Shown: in pieces, positions 31,631-44,862 of the stretch
How the letters are laid out: each line of letters opens with the position of its first letter
Numbering within the stretch: the first letter of the stretch is position 1
Source of the DNA: Spizellomyces punctatus DAOM BR117
Lineage: Eukaryota
Direction: 5' to 3' (one strand)
Assembly (NCBI GenBank): GCA_000182565.2
Contig: KQ257452.1
DNA length: 64,000 bases
The notes under the pieces: generated by a model
What the model saw: the letters and a program-made list of their open reading frames with translations, nothing else
Databases searched by the model: none
What the model was told of the DNA's origin: nothing
Translations under genes and position numbers: made by a program

Positions 31631-34600
31631 ATGACGGTACGGGACGAAGAGTCAAATTCCGCTATAGGCTCCAGTACCTGTAGCCGTTGCGGCCAGCCAA
31701 TTGACGGACAGTTTGTGAGGGCTATTGGAGGACATTTTCACTTGGACTGTTTTCGGTGTCAGGTAAGGGGCAACGGCTACACCATCTGGCCCGAAGGGAC
31801 CTTGGGCTCATTTCCACAATCGCTACCTGGTTCCTCCAGGACTGCCAACAAGTTGTTGCAGAAAAGTTCTTCCCCCACACAGGGCCGGATGGACTCACCC
31901 AAGTGTTCTGCGAGAAGGACTACTTCCGACGATTAGACTTGTTGTGCGCAAAGTGTGGAGGAGCGCTTCGCGGGGCTCACATCAATGCTCTAAACCGCAA
32001 ATATCATCTTGAGCATTTTACCTGCTCAGTTTGTCCTACGGTCTTCAGGCAGCACGACTCGTACTACGAGCAAGATGGCAATGTATATTGTCAGCTTCAT
32101 TATTCGCAATTGTTCGCAGCCAAATGTGGCGGTTGTCGGACGGCTGTCCTGCGAAGTTTTGTGGAAACCAATAAAGCTGAGTGGACAGAGAAGTGGCACC
32201 CGGAGTGCTATATGATATACAAGGTGGGTGGTATATTACGGTTATACCTAAAGTCACCACCTCATCTCAACATGGTGGATCAGCTGTGGAACGTGACGTT
32301 GGTAGCAAATAAGCCTAGTACGTCAACAACACCTGCATTGTCTAATGACAAAGAGGGTAAGCAGTATCGTCGAAAGATGATGGAGGAAATATCGTTCTAA
32401 CGATCATCTGTACAGGAACAGATATTGCGGCGCAACAAGCAATTGCCGAAAAGGCGGGGCGCATATTGCACGTACTTTCCGCGTTCGAGGAGTCGTCAGC
32501 AGAATGCATCTCAGACATGCTCATTCGGTTCTCGCATGAAGAGTTTCGAGAGGGAGTTTTCCAGGCTGCGACATTCGTTAGTCACATTGCCACCCTTTTC
32601 GCAGTCATTGACGACATAGAAATGCGGCTTCTTACCTTCCGCGATGCTACAGGGCTGCATCATGCGAAGGAGCCTAAGCAGCTGACCAAGAAAATTGTGC
32701 ATTTCTTCTCGTTATTGTCATACGTTCAAGATAATGCGGATACGCGGCAGGAAGCCACAAAAGAGATGATATCTCTGGTGACTAGCCTTGCGCACACCCT
32801 GAAGATTCTCATTCGTGCTGCATTGACTGGTGCCCTAAAGCTGGTATGTTCACCTCCTATCATCTTGCTGCACCGGCGCGGTTATTGACGCAGTTACATT
32901 CAGGAAAATGCGCACAACGAGAAGACGGCAGTGGTAACTTTCCTCGACCGCCTAGCAGCATGTGAATGGCAGGATGATGCACAAGGTAAAACTCTCAGCG
33001 AATGCGGTCCGGATGCAAACCCGGATCTGTGCGTGGCTTGCGGGGAACCAGTCGAAGAGGAATGTTTGAAATATGGGTACCGAAGATGGCATAGCCGATG
33101 TTTCCGGTGTGCTGCGTGCGATTTGAACCTGCGCCCCGTGTATGAGGAGGCAACTTACGATGCCGTCACGGGAAAGTTCTATTGTGCGAATCACGCATCA
33201 CCTTCATCAAGCAGGGGGATCGAGCGAGTGACCCAGTTGGAACAATACGTTTTTCTACTACGATGCGCTCTGAAGCGCTTATGTATGCTTCTCCATATTC
33301 AAAGTGGGTATAGCCTTCGTCAATGACTCTGATTTTGTCCACACCGACTAACTCTTCGAACACGAAGTTGATTCGGGCTCTCTACAAGGACCAAATTCCC
33401 CTATCAGCAGTTCGCCAGGTAAGCAACGGTGGCTTGTTTCTCCCGGGACAAGCTAGCTCTTGACTCAACCATGTGACCATATTCACGCGAAACCTCCCGA
33501 CCAGTAGGACCAGATGGGCGCAGCATAGGAGTTTCCATGCTGAACAACGGACAACCGCCTTTTGCGAACGTCAGTAATTCCTTACCTCCCTCAGCTGGCT
33601 CTAAAAGCTTATACTTGCCCCCTGCGGGAAGGCAATCCTCCCTGCGGAATTCCGGTACATCCAGCCTCCTGGATCTATCTGGTCTGGACCATTGGGCTGT
33701 TCGACAGCTTGCTGCCCAGGCTCTGTATCCATTGATGGGCGATCAGTTTACATTAGATGAATTGATGGATGTCGCCAGTGGTCGAAAGCAGTCAATGTGG
33801 GGACGGATGGTAGAGGCGATTCGAAAGCCATCAAAATCGAAAGGTTTGTTGTTATGTCAGGTCCTTTGTTGAATGGGTAATGATTTCTGAATCGCTTGCA
33901 TGTTTTAGAGGGAACATTTGGGGTGCCTTTAGAAGTACTCGTGGACAAGTACGGTGTGGCAACTGAATTAGGACCCCGACCGGGGCAGCTTCAAATTCCA
34001 ATGTTTCTTGATGCCTGTATACGAACATTGCATATGTTGGGTATGTCGATTGTCTTCGGGTGGTGCTTTCTGGACCGTCTGCTAACTGGTTCGTTAGATC
34101 TGGGAGTGGAAGGCATCTTTCGGAAGAATGGCAATATCAGACATTTGAAGACAATATCAGATGAATTAGACAAAGACCCGAGATCCATTAACCTGGCGGG
34201 AAACCATCCAGTGCAAATTGCAGCCTTGTTGAAAAAATTCTTTCGAGACATGCCCGAGCCGCTTCTTACCTTCAAACTTCACCGATTATTCGTCGCCACT
34301 CAGAGTAAGGCGATTCTTGCAATGGTTTACTGTTGCAGATTGACTTACCTTATTTATTTTTAAACAGAGCTTCCAGATCCTGGACGGCGAAAGCAAGCAC
34401 TGCATTACGTATGCTGCCTTCTTCCAAAGCCGAACCTCGACGTTCTGTCAGTACTGGTATTCTTTCTGAGGGAGGTATCAGAGCACCGAGAATTGAACGA
34501 AGACCATGGAAATAAGATGGGACTAGACAACCTGGCTACTGTGATGACGCCGAATATTTTGTATTCAAAGTCAAAGAATGCAGTCGATGATGAGTCACCG

Positions 34601-34971
34601 CTCGCCATTGAAGCCATTCGGATGATCCTGCAGTATCAGGATGAGCTGTGGCAGGTAGGTAGCATACAAGGCTAGCCGATCCTCGCGTTTCATGGTGTAA
34701 CGATTCATTTGTGGTTGCAGATGCCTCCTGATATCAGTGAGAGGATGAAAGCTGACAATGGATCCCAGCCAATCAATATCCCCACCAGACGAGATTCGGA
34801 ATTGGGCAAGAGAACCGAATCTGTAAGTCTTATTTGAATCGAATGCACATGGTGTCCCATTTTAAATCTGACAACGATATCCAGCTATCACACACTCGAA
34901 ATGTCGTAGTGACGCCATCCAATATTGGCCATGGAGACGTTGCGCATATCGAAGATGCTCACCGACGATGA
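31631..34971 (+). CDS. LIM-domain RhoGAP (Lrg1/Rga1-type)
   Basis: Several LIM fingers (CSRC...HLDCFRC; CAKC...HLEHFTC; CVAC...WHSRCFRC); TFGVPLE; EGIFRKNGN; LLKKFFRDMPEPLL; NKMGLDNLATVMTPNI. Confidence 0.92.
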
Positions 34972-35383
34972 TAGCTGCCGTTCGCTCAACTGGAAATCGA
35001 AACTCTCCCTCACCCCCACCTTTTACTTCATCAAACGTTCCACACGCGTACAATGCCACACCTCCTTCACCCTTTGAAATCTGTTGCTACTTACAGTCTG
35101 GTTTTCGACGAACTCTTTCAACGCGGGTTTCTTTTCTTCGTTAACGTTTTACCTATGAAACTCCAGAATACTGTATAGAGGCGGAACTGGACCGCCACTT
35201 CGTTTTTGTTGTCTTCCTTTTTTTTTCTTCGGAGAACTTGCATAAATGTTGCAAACAAAGATTGTTTTACTCTTAAATATTGTTCGCCTTACTCTGTCAG
35301 TTAGTCGACAGGAAAAGATGCACAAAGTCATTGAGTAAAGTGGCACCAGAGTCACCAAAAAAACCCATCCGACCAATCGTACT

Positions 35384-35455
35384 GGGGCCTACTGGGGTTC
35401 GAACCCAGGACCTCCCGCACCCAAAGCGGGAATCGTACCACTAGACCATAGGCCC
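35384..35455 (-). tRNA. tRNA-Pro(TGG)
   Basis: GGGCCTA/TAGGCCC acceptor stem; CCCGC-TTTGGGT-GCGGG anticodon arm; GTTCGAA T loop; T7 terminator at ~35357-35363. Confidence 0.97.
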
Positions 35456-36398
35456 CGATGAAATCTATTACTCCTGCGTTCTATTATATATTTTACAAAA
35501 TGGCAGAGTGCTTTTCGTTGCCTGGTTGTTTGAACCTTGATCTCTTCCTTCTGCGGAACGCTACTTTGACTTGCACCCCGGGCGAATCTCAACGCTATGT
35601 TATGAAGCATATGGTATTTACGAATATTCGCCTCCGGCCTTCTGGTAGCAATCAACGCGGATCTAAGTTTTGTGATTGAAAGATGTGCAGCCCAGAGCGT
35701 CTTCATTAATTTTAAACGCATACGGCAAATGTCACAAAGATATCGCATGGCTCGGAGTAACTGTTTGCCAATTGGTGCCTTCATTACTATCTACAGATTT
35801 CCCGATGTATTTCAATATTGCTGAAACAAAGAGACGCCTTCAAATCGTATGATCGTTCTGGGACAGTATACTTTTTAAGACCATGTGGATCCGAGGGTGT
35901 TCCCCTTTTTAATGATTCCAACTTAACTACTCGACCAAATCAAAGGGTATTCCCCGTTCCCCGTTCCGATATCATAAATTGTTGCATCCCTCATACATTC
36001 CGATTTCTACCATTATCAGCTTAACGTCCGTATATGGACACTTTAGAAAAGATTGTACTGGTGAAGGAGGACAAGATATAAGATGTTGACCATGGCGTCG
36101 AGGCAACGAAGACCAAATGCATGACGCTTCACCCTAATTGCATCTTCAAAATTAAGGCGCTACCTTGATATCATTACTGTGAGATTAGGTGACATTAGAG
36201 AGTGTTCCCGAACTATGGGCTCCTAACAAGTAGATCACATTTGTTGTGAACTGACCGTTTGGTCAAAGGTCCCGTGTTCGATCCTGCCTGCAAGCATCCA
36301 TTTTCTCCCAGGTGGCACAGCACTTTTACTCGCAGTGGAACAGTTTGAACTTTGGTGTTCGCCTTGAGAGATCCCAAGCGGTCGGCCGGGCGAAGACC

Positions 36399-39300
36399 AT
36401 GGACGAGACCTTCAGCATAGAGGAAACAAGTCCCGAGCCCCCAGATCTGCGGCATGACGTCTCAGGTGGTTCATTGCCAGAGCCGTCAGAAATGGACCCT
36501 CCGAGGAAGCGTCGGCGAAGAAAACACAAGCGGAAGCGAGTTGTCTTGGCCCCGGGAAATTTCCTTTCTGGATTCTTTTTTACTTGGGTGTTCCGACTAG
36601 TGCAGATGACACGAAGCATGGAAGATGCAGGAAACCTGTCTCTCCATTTGAGGTCGTCTGAGAGTGCGAAAGTGACCGGTGACGACCTAGAAAAGACCTG
36701 GAGAGCGGAACTTGGCCGACAAACTGGGTAAGTGTTTTCTCAAGGCTTGTAGTCAAGAGAGTGAGGAAATACTGTGGTACTAACACAGCCCCACCGCCCT
36801 ACGTGTTCTTTTAGGACGGCGTCACTTCTCCGGGCACTTCACCGAGCGTTCGGCCTTCGATACTATGCGCTAGCTCTTTGGAAATGTTCATGGGCTGCGT
36901 TTACGTGGCTTGGCGCCTATTGGTTGCTGAAGCAACTCGTGCTTTATTGTGAGACTTCGGGCCCTGTCTGGCGAGGACATCTGTATGCCGTGGGCCTGTT
37001 CATCAGTCATGGGTTGGGATCGCTGTGCTTCCATCAACTTACAATACAATGCACTCGTATTGGAATTCAGGTATGGAAATCTAGTTGAGGGGACTATTAC
37101 TCGTTTAGAGAATAACAAATATTCCGGCCGAGATAACAGTGTCGAGCGGCCCTCATGGTTCTGATATATCGAAAATCACTGCGATTAAGTTATGTAAGGG
37201 GCGGCGTCGGTGATATCGTGAACCTGATCTCGAACGAGTGCAACCGGGTAGCTGAAGCGGCGGTGAATTGGCATTTTGCGTGGTCTGCTGGTATTGAGTG
37301 TTGCGGTATGCATATTTGTCAAATTTCGGTCGCTGGGACACATGACCTAAATATAATGTCCTTTCGCTGATCTATCCTTTTCATGTTGATACAGTCATAA
37401 TTGCTCTCGCTGCGGTGGAGGTGGGCGTAGCAGTTCTTCCGGCGATGGTACTGGTACTATTTATGCTCCTCCCACTGCAATATATCCTTGCCAAGCGGGC
37501 CTCGACGATTTCATACAAAACCACTGCCCTGTTCACAAAACGGGTTCATCTAATGTCAGAAATATTCACGGTGATCAGGCTGATAAAATCATATGCGTGG
37601 GAGAGCTTCTACGAGGAAAAGATTACTGCTGCCCGAAAGAAGGAAATTGGACAAATGCGTAAAGCTCTCACAATGAAGATCGGAAATTTCATTGTGGTCT
37701 TCATCGCCCCTGTCGTTGCTGTTTTAGCATGCATGACAACGTATCATTTCATACATGGTGCTCGCTTTGAGGCCGCAACTGTCTTCACCATACTATCATT
37801 ATTCAATACGCTTCGATATCCTCTGTTGATGTTACCGTCAGCTGTTAGGACCATATCAGGTAAGCTGCGTAGCTTTTGCACAACAGGGGTGCCGTTAGTG
37901 ACCACTCTTGTAAAGGTGCCCAAAACTCTGTCCAGCGCTTGGAAGAGTTTTTCATGCTACCGGAGATAGACGCAGCGCCAAAATTGGAACCCCATCCGTC
38001 GGATGCGGATATCTGCATGGAAATTGTATGACAACAATCCGGTGTATGTTTGGCCAGTTTTATTGATGCATGGCTCTCATCCAGAAAGGCGCCGACTTCA
38101 TGTGGGACGGTGATATAGATCACCCACATATCGAAAAACTCGATTTGGTCCTCCGACGACGCCAACTGATCGCGGTGGTAGGGGACCTTGGATCGGGAAA
38201 GTCACTACTGGCCGCTATTATGGGGCAGATTAAGCGAACAGCTGGCTCTGTATCTACCTACGGGTTAGTCTTCACCATTTCGTGTCTGAAATTACGACTA
38301 GTGAATTAAGACCACCTGCTTGTTCTAATTGCAGCACGTGTGGCTACGTGCCGTTGGAACCATGGCTACTAGACAACGCTTCGCTCCGTGATAATGTATT
38401 GTTTGGTGTTGAGTCGGACGAGGGCCGTTATCATGAAGCCGTGCGCGTCGCCGGACTTATGCAAGACTTCATTTCGCTACCAAATGGTGACTGTTGACTC
38501 GTAGTTGCATCCCTGATTTGCTCTCCTGGAAGCTGAAACGGCTTGTTGTGTTATGCTCTGCTCTAGGCGATGAAGAGTTTGTGAGCGAGCTGGAGCTGAC
38601 CAGAAGTCAACGGCAGCGAATTTCTCTCGCCCGATGTTTGTATCATCAACCGGATATCGCGCTCTTGGAGGATTGTCTTACGTATGTCTTGAGATGTCTG
38701 TGATGGGTGAAGTTGTGTGCTGAATTTGTATTTAAAGTGATTTCGACACGAAGAACGCCAAAAGAATATTTACTGACTGTGTGAAGGGGCATATGCTCAG
38801 TAAGATGGCAGTGGTGATGGTAACGCAACAGAAACAGGTACATCGAATTACTTCTGTAAGGATTTATATGACGCGTCGTTCGAATTAAGCGTGTTTTTCC
38901 TCCCAAGTTCCTTTCTGAGTGCGACATGATATTGGTGATGAAATCTGGAACAGGTAGTCTATATCTTGATGTTTAATACAAGAGAATTAGATGCTGATAA
39001 TAGATTGAACAGTTGTCGAGCAGGGGACATTTGACGAACTGAAGGCGCGGAATGTGATTTTCAATGTGTGGGCGACCGATCTCATACAGCCGGATGATGA
39101 TACAATAGTCCTCTCCGACATAAGTAAGAGATATCCAGAGATTCTACCCATGCCTGATCGCGTAGCTCAATTGTAGTCGTATGATCATCGCTTGTACTGT
39201 AGAGCCCGCTGAAAGCTTGGGGCCACACATTCCCAAACCTAAGCGCCCCCCTCCCCGAAAACGAAGCCCTCTCGCAACCGCGGAAGTCATAACGGCGGAG

Positions 39301-42300
39301 CAAACAGAGAACACACGGCCACCTGTTGATGCCTCTGGGCCCGATCTAAGCTCCGTTGATCTGACTATTCGCCGCCTGAACCAACTACGTGGAATTGAGC
39401 CGATCACAGACCACACAATATCTCAAATTATTGAGCGAAATCAGTTGTCTGTATTGACTGGAACTCCCAGCCGGCCACCTGTCAACTTTGCAAATCAAGA
39501 TGTGGTGACGCGAACAATCGAGGCCAATCAACTCACAGTGCATGCGGTGCAAACTTATGATACTGTTGGCCCCACAGCAACTTCCGGGCTGATAGATCCA
39601 TCTCCTGAGTCGCAGCATCCACTGCGTCCATACGTGCAGTATCTTCAGGAAGCTGACGGAATCCTGGCAGGAGCAATTGTCGTCGGATCGTTCTTTGTAG
39701 TCGCCACCATTCGGGTCCTTAGCGGTAGGTTTCCTCATGAAGGACGTGATGCAGGTGAATTCAGCTGACGGTGCTCTACCGCAACGTGTACAGATGTTTG
39801 GGTGGCGTGGTTCGTGGAAGGCAAATACTCCTTGTCGGAGGGACTGTATATTGGGATATATGCTTTATTTTGCTCAGCCATCGCTGTGGGCGTTTTGGTG
39901 CGCGGGTACGCATTTTCTGCCGCTGTACTGAGCCGAAGCATATCACTACATAATCGGGTGCTCCAGGTGAGACGTTCATGGCACATGAGTGACTGAACGT
40001 GTGTCTGACTGGTTATTGCCACAAGGCCGTACTTCGTGCTCCTCTGTCATTTTATGAAGTGACACCATTAGGCCAAATTCTGTCACACTTCGCTCGCTAC
40101 CTCTATATGATCGATGATTTTCTTCCGGAGGCAGCCTTGCAGGCCCTTTCTTTCGGCCCCATCGTCTTCGGAACTGTAATCCTTGTGTCGGTGGTCACCC
40201 CATGGTTTTGGGCAACCCTACCAGTATATTTCTTCCTGGTGGCGTGTTTGATTCACTTTTGTGGTGACACGGAAGCCAAGTTCAAACGTCTAGAAGGTCT
40301 TATTCTCTGAGTACTGCATAGCCATGCCTTAACTGATTTTCTCATCTATAGCCAGCAACAAGTCACCAATGTTTGCGCACTTATCAAGCACGCTGGAAGG
40401 ACTTTTTAGCATTCGCCTGTATCACGCTGAGGATCGGTTTGATACCTTCAATAGAACATTAATAGATTCCGACCACAAAGCGCTGTACTCATTGATGCTA
40501 GGTAAGGCGGGCGGCTCTTTGTGCGATGAAAACTTTCATCGCGATCCTCAACCCTACACATTTTTAGTGAAGACCCTGCTGGCTCTTTACTTGGATTTAA
40601 TAGGTTAGTGTGGCTCCCCTGAAAGTAGTGATTGTTTTTGTTCGCTAAGATAACACTACTTCTGGTCATACTAGCGTCTCTATTTGTGTATATCTGTGCA
40701 CTTTTCGTAGTGCTCTTCGATGTTGGACCCTCTCAAGCAGGCTTGGCGGTGTCCAATGCCCTCCAGTTACTCCTCTTTCTGCAATGGTTCGTTCGAATTC
40801 TGGGCGAAGTACATGGAACGATGTCAAGCGTGTCGGCCGTTGTGAACTTTGCCGAATGTTGTCCATATGAGGTACGGCAAGACCCACCGTTCCCCGATGA
40901 CCCATTTACCCTAATATTTATCCTTTATCTAGAGGGATGCACGCGGAAATCATCCTCCGCCAGAATGGCCATTGCACGGAGAGGTATGGGTCGGCGAGAA
41001 GCATAGTGATACCGTTAGTCTAAAAGCTAATTACGACTGATACTCTTTCTAGATTGAATTCAAGAATGTGGTTCTGCGATATAACCGCTATGGAGTTGCG
41101 GTTCTCAAGAATGTGACATTCCGGATTGCACCTGGAGAAAAGATTGGTGTTGTCGGACGATCTGGTAAGAGTAGGAAGTACTGTTTTCAGCGAGGTTGGA
41201 AGTATTAAAACGCGCATCACATTGGAAAGGGTCTGGGAAGACGACCTTACTAGGTAAGCATGATCCGATGGTTAAAAATGGCATATCCTTTTGCGAACTA
41301 AACCCATTTTTACGCAGTGTCACTGTTGCGAATGGTCGAGCTGTCGGAGGGCGACATTCTCATTGATGGGATTGATATCAGCAAATTGCGCCTCGCTGAT
41401 TTAAGGAGTCGTATCGCCATCATCCCGCAGGAGCCAATTCTGTTGACTGGAACAATTCGATCAAACTTGGATCCCTTCAGGACCTGTCTTGATGAGGAGC
41501 TTTGGAAAGCTCTTCAGGCAGTTCACCTCGGGCAGAAGATTGAAGAAATGCCTGCTAAGTTGGAGACACCCATCACTGGTCAGTCGTGGAACCGTTATCG
41601 TCGACGTTTTATTGACGGCAATAACATCGTATGCTTATGACAGAAAACGGGAAGGCGTTTACTCTCACTGAGAGGCAACTATTTTGCATTGCGCGAGCAA
41701 TCATCAATAAATCAAAAGTGGTTGTCCTAGATGGTTTGTATGCCGCGGTGTTATTCTGTTACCTGCATTCCCGCTCACTCCGTCTTCGAAATCATTTTGC
41801 GATATTGCTACAGAACCTGTAATGTCTATGGGTCACGAGGCAGACAACCTTATCCATTCGGTTATTGCAACAAACTTTGAAAGTTGCACCGTTATCGTCC
41901 TCGCTAGCCGGTTCCGATTCATTGTTCAAATGGACCGAATCATGGTTATGTCCCGCGGGCGGGTGGTTGAGTTTGATACTCCCATCTCACTTCTGAACGA
42001 TCCAAAAAGCAAGTTCTCGCTGATGGTGTCGCAAACAGGGGAGATGGACCCTGTGAGATTGCGAAAGATTGCAATGGCGAAGGGAAAAATGCCGCCAAGC
42101 AAGGTACTGGTCGATATGGGCAATGACTCCGGCGAAGTTTCGCAGAGAGAACCTGTTCGTCCGTTTGCACCTGCTTTACGGTTCCGACCGCCGTCTCCCG
42201 ATACGAGTCAAGACATCGACAAGAATCGCATGCCAAAGAGCCTGAAGGACCTATTTAAGATGGCTGCTCAAGACGGGACAACCCATTCACGGATGGTACC

Positions 42301-42442
42301 AAGACCGCGAGGGCAAGGTGGAATCTTCCCAGAAAGGGGTACTAGTTCAGAGTCATTGGGCGAATCAGATTCGGGAAGATCTATGGATGGAACATCTTCA
42401 ACGGAGGCTCTTCTACCTGCGCAGCACGCACGGGACTTTTAG
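36399..42442 (+). CDS. ABCC/MRP-family full-length ABC protein (TMD-NBD)x2 with degenerate NBD motifs
   Basis: GDIVNLISNE; IRLIKSYAWE; Walker A GDLGSGKS; VLRAPLSFYEVTPLGQI; Walker A GRSGSGKTT; IIPQEPILLTGTIRSNLDPF. Confidence 0.93.
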
Positions 42443-42934
42443 AAAAGAAGAGGTCCCTACATCCACGCATACCGATGCTGACCGCAGGAGCTTCATGTTA
42501 CATAATTTCAATGCTGTATCATATTGTACGTACGGATAATACCCTAATACAAGACGGATGTATTTAGGCAAAAAAGCAAGGTCGGAAGGGGTAGTGTCGT
42601 GCCCAGGACGAGGGAGGGCGAGATGGCGTGAAAGGCAGAGGTTGTGGAAATGGAATTAAGTTCCATGCATTGGCGCAGAACAACTGCCAATATATACAAT
42701 TCTTCCTGATGCGTAATAGAATATCATTCACTCTGATTGTTAAAGTGACGGTGGTTGCTTTCGCCACACAAAGAGTTCTTGTCTTAGAAGAAGTGGTCAA
42801 TCGAGTAGGATAAGAGGGCACCTTTGGCATACTGAGGAACTGTATGTTCTTCAGAGGACTCGTTTTCATGTGTAATCGGTAATGTGATTAAAACTAAGAT
42901 AAGATCTCTATGTACAAGTTATTTGGCTGTAAGG

Positions 42935-44862
42935 TTATACGGCCGACCTGTTCTCTTGGACTATGCCTTGAATGGCGATAGTGTATTCCTCGGAAAGCTG
43001 CGTCATTCTTATGTCTAAAGTTGTAACGTACTGCGAGGAAAGTTAGGTGTACGGGTCCCAATTCAACGAGAAACTGAAGTGATTCTAACCTTGTTTTGAC
43101 TAATGGCATCTAATAGCATTTTTCCTGCTACATCATCCACTCCTTCAGTTGTCTGAGTTTCCTGCGTCCCATCACTTTTTCCAGCAGCCACTCGCCCCAA
43201 CTTGTTGCAGCTGAGGTCCAAAGCGACGAGGGCTTTCCCATTGTGTTTCAGTAAATCACATAAAGAGGTCACCGTCGTCCAGCCAAGACTATTGCTACTG
43301 AGTTCCAGATTTTGAAGATTGTCGTTTTCACGCAAGTCAGAACATAGGCTGGCTCCGCCTGCATCTGTCAAGTAATTCATATTCAAGGATAAATGTTTCA
43401 ATGTCTTGTTTTGTTTCAACGCCGATCCTATGCAGCGAGCTCCGTGACGCCCGATTTTGTTATCCGAGAGGTTGAGGTACTCTAGGGCGGTTGTTGATGT
43501 GCCGAGCACCTTAGCCAGTCCGCGGGCACCTGTATCCCCAATTCGGTTGTGCGACAAATCTTCAATAAAACAAAAAACGAAGACCATGTTAGTTCTCCTA
43601 GAGTGATGGTGGGGTACGCGGGATGCGTCTTACCAAGTCGATGCAAGGTGCTATTTTGCAGTAGGGCGGAACATAGCAATCGGCATCGATCATCGTCTAT
43701 TCTGCTTGCTTGAATGGTCAAACTCGAGAGATGGGAAGCCTTGACTGCATTGGCAAGCGATATACAATCGTTCAACGTCATCCCAAAGTATTGCCAATCA
43801 AAATCGATCCCACAGTCTCGTACCCTATGGTGAATGTATCAAGATGCCTGCTTGTCAAGTCAACACATGAGGGTACCCTTACCCATAATACAGATTGAGT
43901 TCTGACACTTTGCTTAGCTTTGTTAAAATCAAGCCAATGTCTAAATGATCTGGAGACGATCCTGGCTTGGTAAACTCTTTGTCATTTTCGTCCATTGCGG
44001 ATTTTTCTGAACCCGGAACATGGCCTGATCGTTGTGTCCCGAAACGTCGAGCATCTACTCCTTTTTGATCCAGATTCATCTTGTTCTGGTAACCCACAGG
44101 TAATAGCTGCGTGATACGTATAGTTTCTACGTAGGACGCTGCCAAATCCAAGTCTGCTAAGAATGCGTCCAAATGTTCCCCATCTGGTATGTACGCCTCA
44201 ATTATTCGACGCATGTGCAATTCGAAGAACAGTCGTTTCCACACTCCCCCATGCGCGGATGGATCACATAGTTTAAACGTTGCAATCGCTTTTCTTTTCC
44301 AATATGTGTCATCAGGAATTAAGGGCGCTGTTATTACTAGGGGAAGGTCAACGGAAATAGAGGATAGCAATCGCTCTCGGTATTTAGCTGGGATGCCTGT
44401 CAAGACGGGCCGCTCTGTAACAAGCATGCTTATCCATGAGACTAAAAATTTTGAAGAAATTCATTCATACGTCATTAACGTACTTTCGAAATTCGCCACG
44501 ATGGACCGAATACATAATTCGCTCAAGTTCTCCACCGCAGCAAGGTTCCACTCTGGATCTTCGGCGATAACTCTTCGTTGACCACCTTTATCGGGTCCTC
44601 CATCGTAGGGCACGCTAATACCCCCAAGGGGCTCGTTGACTCCTTGGGACGTATCGAAGAGACCTGATGGAGGGGCAACGCTCTTCGTCTCTGCGGTGGC
44701 CACGGCAGGATTGCTATTCACCCGCTTCGGCAATTCCGACTGAGGGACCACACCGCTAGCCTGCTGCAGGTGAGATTGGTAAGTTTAAAAGATTAAAAGA
44801 CTTCATAATCTCAAAAAAACAAGTACCTCGGCATCAGGGGATGACGCAGGAACTTCGTCCAT
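42935..44862 (-). CDS. TCTE1: Dynein regulatory complex subunit 5 (TCTE1/DRC5), LRR protein
   Basis: RRVIAEDPEWNLA..LSELCIRSIVANF; DLPL..APLIPDDTYWKR; HGGVWKRLFFE; RI-type LRRs (LSHNRIGDTGARGLA). Confidence 0.9.

Follow-up and report, generated by a model that had tools for sequence, protein, structure and literature searches.

In all ABCC proteins the first of the two ATP sites (site 1) is already degenerate, and SUR combines a transmembrane domain termed TMD0 with a second site (site 2) competent for hydrolysis. As a rule, the consensus site of ABCCs is intact (PMC7756269; this and the other papers are cited for those parts of them that were available). Departures from pumping include SUR1/SUR2 (ABCC8/9), ABCCs that act as nucleotide-sensing regulators (PMC2848647), and CFTR (ABCC7), in which site 2 is hydrolytic, transmembrane helix 6 (TM6) is remodelled and protein kinase A (PKA) sites are many (PMC8640958). 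In the D674A mutant of TAP, a single active site without hydrolysis yields a nucleotide-gated passive facilitator, the D-loop change facing that active site (PMC4242082). Here we describe SPPG_01856, an ABCC gene of the chytrid Spizellomyces punctatus DAOM BR117, encoded on the plus strand of a 64,000-nucleotide stretch of contig KQ257452.1 (assembly GCA_000182565.2; hereafter the window), which shares with orthologues from across the chytrids a remodelled site 2 in which the switch His of the second nucleotide-binding domain (NBD2) and the NBD1 signature LSGGQ have both been replaced.

Two ABC_membrane and two ABC_tran domains were identified in SPPG_01856 with Pfam, giving the short-type ABCC layout TMD1-NBD1-TMD2-NBD2 in a single chain whose closest relatives are ABCC proteins. 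Its best relative of solved structure is ABCC4 (E value 2.7e-195), and that alignment begins at residue 51, ahead of which there are only approximately 50 hydrophilic residues, and thus no TMD0. The short pumps ABCC4/MRP4 and ABCC5 have this same layout without TMD0; ABCC4 differs, however, in keeping LSGGQ and in having neither of the NBD1 deletions nor the linker module described below. The AlphaFold model of orthologue P0025, which is without TMD1 and the mini-exon of the second Walker A, has normally folded NBD and TMD2 regions (mostly 80-95 in the predicted local distance difference test, pLDDT) that match the structures of MRP5, ABCC2 and ABCC4. The gene has been listed as SpunABCC2, a protein of the Yor1-like group VII, in the supplement of PMC2848647.

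At least 276 proteins were retrieved by searching three times for homologues and once with a profile library, the two long lists giving at least 120 matches each, and all clade counts hold among the matches listed. The 244 proteins of at least 700 amino acids were aligned and 240 of them were placed in a tree; entries are clusters and not independent species, n in the motif counts is the number of entries covering a position, and the outgroup comprises 30 of the 85 other ABCCs. SPPG_01856 fell within one subfamily of 155 tree entries (support 1.0 / 100) made up of three clades. Clade A consists of 39 chytrid entries, extended for the motif counts by four partial ones to 43 (34 named taxa), from Spizellomycetales, Rhizophlyctidales, Rhizophydiales, Chytridiales, Cladochytriales and others. 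Clade B holds 13 Mortierellaceae entries, and clade C, with 103 entries, includes SPPG_07067, the sister paralogue in the S. punctatus genome (43% identity to SPPG_01856).

Since site 1 of ABCCs is degenerate in any case, the informative changes are those at site 2, and the core case rests on the loss of the NBD2 His together with the remodelling of the NBD1 signature, X-loop and D-loop. Among the 34 clade A entries spanning both motifs, neither LSGGQ nor the switch His was found (0/34 for each). The switch position was occupied by Ser (30) or Thr (6) in all 36 entries covering it, against His in 13/13 entries of clade B, 86/87 of clade C, where the exception is a truncated gene model, and 26/27 other ABCCs. 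In the NBD1 signature of clade A the first Gly was missing from 40 of 41 entries and the second was Ser in 31, Ala in seven and Gly in three, with no entry holding both (0/41); clade C retained the first in 101/101 and the second in 99/101, outgroup ABCCs were canonical (30/30), and clade B had lost the first Gly alone (13/13, LS[QHV]GQ). Two deletions in NBD1, one residue after the GKS of Walker A (41/41) and two residues in the X-loop (40/41), were present in clade A and in none of clade B, clade C or the outgroup. The NBD1 Walker A also carried Lys-to-Arg (9/41) and Gly-to-Ala/Cys (5/41) changes, and the Walker B Asp had become Glu in 36/41. Asp at the NBD1 catalytic position (39/41) and an altered NBD2 signature correspond to a degenerate site 1 of ABCC type. 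As an internal control, all eight of the other ABCC loci checked in the S. punctatus genome keep LSGGQ and His, as does SPPG_07067. Judged on its motifs, clade A does not match a canonical pump, LSGGQ and the His being absent and the NBD2 Walker A Lys, Q-loop Gln and Walker B Asp-Glu present. It is neither a CFTR nor a SUR. The features concerned are as follows.

36399..42442, + strand: ABCC gene SPPG_01856, 23 exons, 1514 amino acids, start ATG at 36399 and stop at 42442
36726..37974, + strand: TMD1 (TM1-6), no TMD0 ahead (Pfam ABC_membrane; ABCC4 alignment)
38017..39059, + strand: NBD1 (Pfam ABC_tran)
38181..38225, + strand: NBD1 Walker A, followed by the one-residue deletion seen throughout clade A (41/41; gap relative to ABCC4)
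38345..38365, + strand: NBD1 Q-loop with a local Gln-to-Leu change (clade A Gln 38, Leu 3, Glu 1, n=42)
38486..38613, + strand: NBD1 X-loop, shortened by two residues, and the degenerate signature LTRSQ, with an intron inside (clade A alignment)
38659..38747, + strand: NBD1 Walker B (Asp-to-Glu) and remodelled D-loop, with new Asp592 and Phe593 and retained Asp594 (clade A alignment)
38820..38837, + strand: NBD1 H-loop TQQK with new, near-invariant Lys623 (clade A Gln 41/42, Lys 41/42)
39631..40938, + strand: TMD2 (TM7-12; Pfam ABC_membrane)
40981..42037, + strand: NBD2 (Pfam ABC_tran)
41155..41246, + strand: NBD2 Walker A, canonical, finished by mini-exon 41230-41253 (clade A Lys 35/35)
41658..41678, + strand: NBD2 signature FTLTE, belonging to site 1 (clade A last residue Glu 35/35, Gly kept 4/35)
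41718..41833, + strand: NBD2 Walker B, Asp-Glu retained, with an intron within the Glu codon; local loss of the D-loop Asp (Glu 35/36, D-loop Asp 33/36)
41900..41914, + strand: NBD2 H-switch LASRF, His to Ser (clade A Ser 30, Thr 6, His 0, n=36)

An earlier sequence-only reading of the window had proposed an ABCC with both sites degenerate. All of the motifs that it quoted were recovered in place with the 23-exon model, and its two central observations, the NBD1 signature LTRSQ (LSGGQ 0/41 in clade A) and the NBD2 His-to-Ser change in LASR (His 0/36), were borne out, and the degeneracy at both places proved to be shared by the chytrid orthologues. Neither of the sequence findings that would have overturned that reading, canonical motifs after correct splicing or in orthologues, was obtained. 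Its list of degenerate motifs was nonetheless too long: the NBD1 Q-loop, Walker B and H-loop and the NBD2 signature belong to the site that is degenerate in all ABCCs, and other changes are local to three entries. Thus the NBD1 Gln-to-Leu change is present here (Q509L) but is not a family trait (3/42), and of the changes read in LDEPVMSMG the Glu is indeed kept and the D-loop Asp lost, though the latter loss is again local (3/36). Both Walker A motifs had been called intact, which is correct for NBD2 but not for NBD1 with its deletion and Lys-to-Arg changes, and the X-loop deletion had been overlooked.

Much of the ATP-binding apparatus was retained in clade A. In NBD2 the A-loop Tyr (37/37), Walker A Lys (35/35), Q-loop Gln (35/36), Walker B Asp (34/34) and D-loop Asp (33/36) were kept, as were the A-loop Trp (41/42) and Q-loop Gln (38/42) of NBD1, and the near-invariance of the NBD2 Walker A Lys, Q-loop, Walker B Asp-Glu and A-loop argues that ATP binding is under selection. 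Positions conserved in at least 85% of entries numbered, for clades A and C respectively, 105 and 100 in TMD1, 103 and 93 in NBD1, 40 and 10 in the linker, 88 and 102 in TMD2, and 118 and 125 in NBD2, a comparison that favours A since C covers more phyla. When the two copies were compared within 10 matched species pairs, A was mostly 0-17 identity points below C over the four domains (in Batrachochytrium dendrobatidis, 71 against 71 for NBD2 and 55 against 65 for TMD2), whereas for the linker motif A was the more conserved copy in 8 of the 9 pairs that could be scored. Positions at which A and C have fixed different residues were concentrated in the D-loop, D-helix and H-loop of NBD1 and near the switch of NBD2, the residues of clade A being D592 (40/41), F593 (41/41), R600 (35/41), K623 (41/42), F1339 (36/36) and M1376 (36/36), with A598 and S1371 as further new conserved residues. 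We infer from this pattern that the NBD interface has been rebuilt under purifying selection and is not decaying.

The sister SPPG_07067 and clade C share with clade A a well-supported subfamily, a near-identical TM6 and weaker linker repeats, but have a fully canonical site 2, no deletions and no C-tail motif (0/103). Clade B carries the linker module and C-tail motif (11/13) as clade A does, and differs in retaining the His (13/13) and in having no deletions. The three clades look like a natural series, from the canonical sister through a half-degenerate copy in Mortierellaceae to the fully remodelled one of the chytrids. Tree support for grouping A with B was mixed (92.4 in the Shimodaira-Hasegawa approximate likelihood ratio test with 52 taxa, 0.485 in FastTree with 240 taxa), and both are long branches; the shared linker module and C-tail motif support orthology, which we regard as probable. 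Hosts of clade C entries comprise chytrids, aphelids, Blastocladiomycota, Olpidium, Rozella, Conidiobolus and Mortierellaceae; among the matches listed, which do not prove loss, core Chytridiales appeared in A only, and Powellomyces, Geranomyces, Gaertneriomyces and others, several genera of Spizellomycetales among them, in C only. The subfamily formed a separate clade (support 100) in the tree, whose single sequence labelled Yor1 served as outgroup.

Several further observations were made in this family. The gene SPPG_07067 (P0157; G000:C14, L001) is intron-poor, with one open frame of 1341 codons versus 22 introns in SPPG_01856, and its NBD1 H-loop residue is Asn, as in 39/102 clade C entries. 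Clade B entries such as P0044 have His in the NBD1 Q-loop, a possible intermediate, and a fragment from the Glomeromycota (Entrophospora, P0150) is similar to the clade B copies. A rotifer (Brachionus) ABCC, P0258, clusters with Rozella within the fungal clade C, which may reflect an ancient subfamily, transfer or contamination.

These findings are best accommodated, with a probability that we place at roughly 0.5, by a functional, chytrid-wide ABCC that hydrolyses ATP inefficiently and serves as an ATP-gated conformational switch and not as a pump. Mg-ATP would bind NBD2 through its retained binding residues and the NBDs would still close, closure remaining feasible because the second signature Gly has been replaced solely by Ser or Ala and new interface residues have been fixed. 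Lacking the switch His, ATP turnover would be absent or very slow, such that closure would track nucleotide and ligand occupancy without a directional power stroke, and the conserved cavity would bind a ligand resembling that of the sister pump. The output could tentatively be sought in a SUR-like sensor or regulator that relays its state to a putative partner via the linker helices and C-tail motif, or, somewhat less probably, in a gated facilitator through which ligand flows downhill. The analogy with SUR1/SUR2 is a functional one; their sequence match is lower than that of ABCC4. TAP D674A differs in being a laboratory mutant of an ABCB heterodimer whose altered D-loop Asp is retained in clade A. 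In favour of the switch, mutation of the H-loop abolished both ATPase activity and transport in HisP, MalK and HlyB (PMC9867378), and CFTR G551S, which makes the substitution found here at the second signature Gly, keeps a wild-type response to ATP (PMC4178940).

A number of points weigh against such a switch. Pdr5 H1068A hydrolyses ATP normally (PMC9867378), the catalytic Glu is present in 35/36 clade A entries, the exception being a damaged gene model, and Asp594 of the NBD1 D-loop is retained in 37/41, residues that could be expected to drift in a dead site. SUR couples to its channel through TMD0, which SPPG_01856 is without; the apparently patchy co-occurrence of A and C copies makes it doubtful that the sister pump is an obligate partner. 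Both the linker and the C-tail motif already occur in the near-canonical Mortierellaceae group and are thus older than the His loss, of which they are not themselves evidence. The earlier suggestion that the protein may bind nucleotide and hydrolyse it poorly fits the pattern of conservation, the loss of hydrolysis being putative in view of the retained Glu and the Pdr5 and CFTR precedents.

A serious though less probable contender is a real but slow pump with a rewired site, in which Glu1306 acts as base and Asp592, Arg600 or Lys623 takes over the role of the His. The head of NBD2 is canonical save for the His, with the Glu in 35/36, conservation of the TMDs and NBDs is near that of the pump clade (mostly 0-17 points lower in pairs), and both Pdr5 H1068A (PMC9867378) and CFTR G551S (PMC4178940) furnish precedents. 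Absence of the first signature Gly is moreover tolerated in the Mortierellaceae group, where site 2 is otherwise canonical save for small changes in the NBD1 D-loop. Such a pump would nevertheless have to accommodate four simultaneous departures at its sole consensus site (the His, both Gly residues, the X-loop deletion and the D-loop change), a combination seen in no pump of the comparison sets.

Between NBD1 and TMD2 lies a long linker, whose features are given here with that of the C-terminus.

39256..39276, + strand: basic-Ser-Pro-Leu site in the linker, a candidate phosphosite (34/43 clade A entries)
39361..39546, + strand: conserved linker module of three predicted helices, containing two NQL[ST]V repeats (profile comparison, predicted structure)
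42230..42256, + strand: short C-tail motif MP[KR]SLxx[LIV]F (24/39 clade A, 11/13 clade B)

The linker module spans approximately 60 residues. A profile built from clades A and B, which match it by construction, scored at least 15 bits in 25/103 clade C entries, where the NQL[ST]V repeats take a weaker form, and in 0/85 other ABCCs; the matches P0137, P0147 and P0149 are bacterial Ig-like repeats and were dismissed as chance. Three helices were predicted without a confident tertiary fold (predicted template-modelling score 0.30), and in the P0025 AlphaFold model the linker had a pLDDT of 45-57. No fold match at Z of at least 5 was found for the linker model among 48,161 chains, which does not by itself make the fold a new one, and the ESM Atlas yielded nothing beyond short clusters without names (0.87-0.90). 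When the linker was modelled in complex with the two NBDs and ATP, without alignments, the score was 0.00 and no verdict emerged. The C-tail motif was carried by 0/103 clade C and 0/85 other ABCC entries, and several clade A entries without it are truncated.

That the protein is an ion channel gated by ATP as CFTR is, its linker taking the place of the R domain, is improbable. The length of the linker and its conserved basic-Ser-Pro site are compatible with this, the likeness to CFTR extending to a long linker and to a non-pump ABCC as proposed here, and non-hydrolytic CFTR mutants still gate (10.1101/2023.07.16.549217). However, the TM6 consensus is near-identical in clades A, B and C, with no new basic residues in A, whereas TM6 of CFTR is a divergent pore helix (PMC8640958), and by sequence CFTR ranks below ABCC4, 2, 5, 1, 3, Ycf1 and SUR. 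In the 200 residues after NBD1 of SPPG_01856 one dibasic site was found, and in this protein the hydrolytic type of site 2, the remodelled TM6 and the many PKA sites of CFTR were not seen. The channel that the sequence-only reading had listed among its candidates is without sequence support, TM6 being like that of the pumping sister.

More improbable still is a membrane scaffold that works independently of nucleotide and retains its NBDs for folding only. Erosion of the NBD1 Walker A, through its deletion and its Lys-to-Arg and Gly-to-Ala/Cys changes, and the existence of conserved cytosolic motifs would suit it, but the A-loop Tyr, Walker A Lys and Walker B Asp of NBD2 are invariant.

The gene model itself contains 22 GT-AG introns of 55-89 nucleotides and no internal stops, and its spliced product is letter-for-letter the database protein P0001 (SPPG_01856, Spizellomyces punctatus). 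The intact frame previously read over about 20 exons at 38160..41990 is thus upheld, with 23 exons in a gene that extends well past those limits. All eight alternative junctions failed, through loss of frame or gain of stops; the NBD1 signature change and the NBD2 His-to-Ser change each lie entirely within an exon, and an intron interrupts the codon of catalytic Glu1306. In RNA run X7, 467 reads mapped to the region, predominantly at the 3' end, and nine carried untemplated A at 42736, where depth immediately upstream was 55 and the following 20 genomic bases hold only four A. From its position and strand, this poly(A) end probably belongs to SPPG_01856, giving one further feature.

42443..42736, + strand: putative 3' untranslated region up to the poly(A) site (RNA read ends, run X7)

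No spliced reads were seen over the gene body in the RNA reads, which were of low depth, and contigs from X1, X3 and X6 were unspliced. A pseudogene, against which the earlier reading had also argued, a relaxed duplicate or a splicing error, which that lack of spliced reads might suggest, is largely refuted by the open frame of 1514 codons over 23 exons, the poly(A) end and the same changes in 34 named taxa with differing gene models.

The 24-nucleotide mini-exon at 41230-41253, which supplies the end of the NBD2 Walker A, has no counterpart in the annotated orthologues P0025 and P0012, where it was probably skipped in annotation. The N-terminal tail includes a strongly basic run encoded at window positions 36500-36540. 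Upstream of the gene lie a tRNA-Pro gene (35383-35456, minus strand) and a RhoGAP-domain gene (about 33000-35080, plus strand), and downstream a convergent leucine-rich-repeat gene (43063-44784, minus strand), to whose 3' end the loose poly(T) ends at 42863, approximately 130 nucleotides from the ABCC poly(A) site, probably belong.

Literature searches, outside the scope of which most subscription papers fell, found no description of the clade A degeneracy or of any naturally occurring ABCC in which both sites are dead; on the alignments this ABCC variant is real and conserved. If the switch interpretation holds, and at the same odds as given above, clade A would be a natural ABCC without a working ATPase site across the sampled chytrid taxa, a sensor/regulator or passive facilitator, and would add to CFTR and SUR a third case, and in fungi a first one, in which an ABCC independently left pumping. 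Two long-standing questions, how pumps of the ABC type turn into channels or regulators and whether the cycle can be driven by ATP binding alone, have been studied mostly via engineered mutants, CFTR and SUR, and CFTR and SUR still hydrolyse at one site. The subfamily offers a natural three-step series, two steps of which are present in the single genome of S. punctatus, and the pumping sister and half-degenerate Mortierellaceae orthologue would then be living stages of the change. Either outcome would be informative, in that clade A would prove to be a true pseudo-ATPase ABCC or else an ABC active site that functions without the switch His and LSGGQ.

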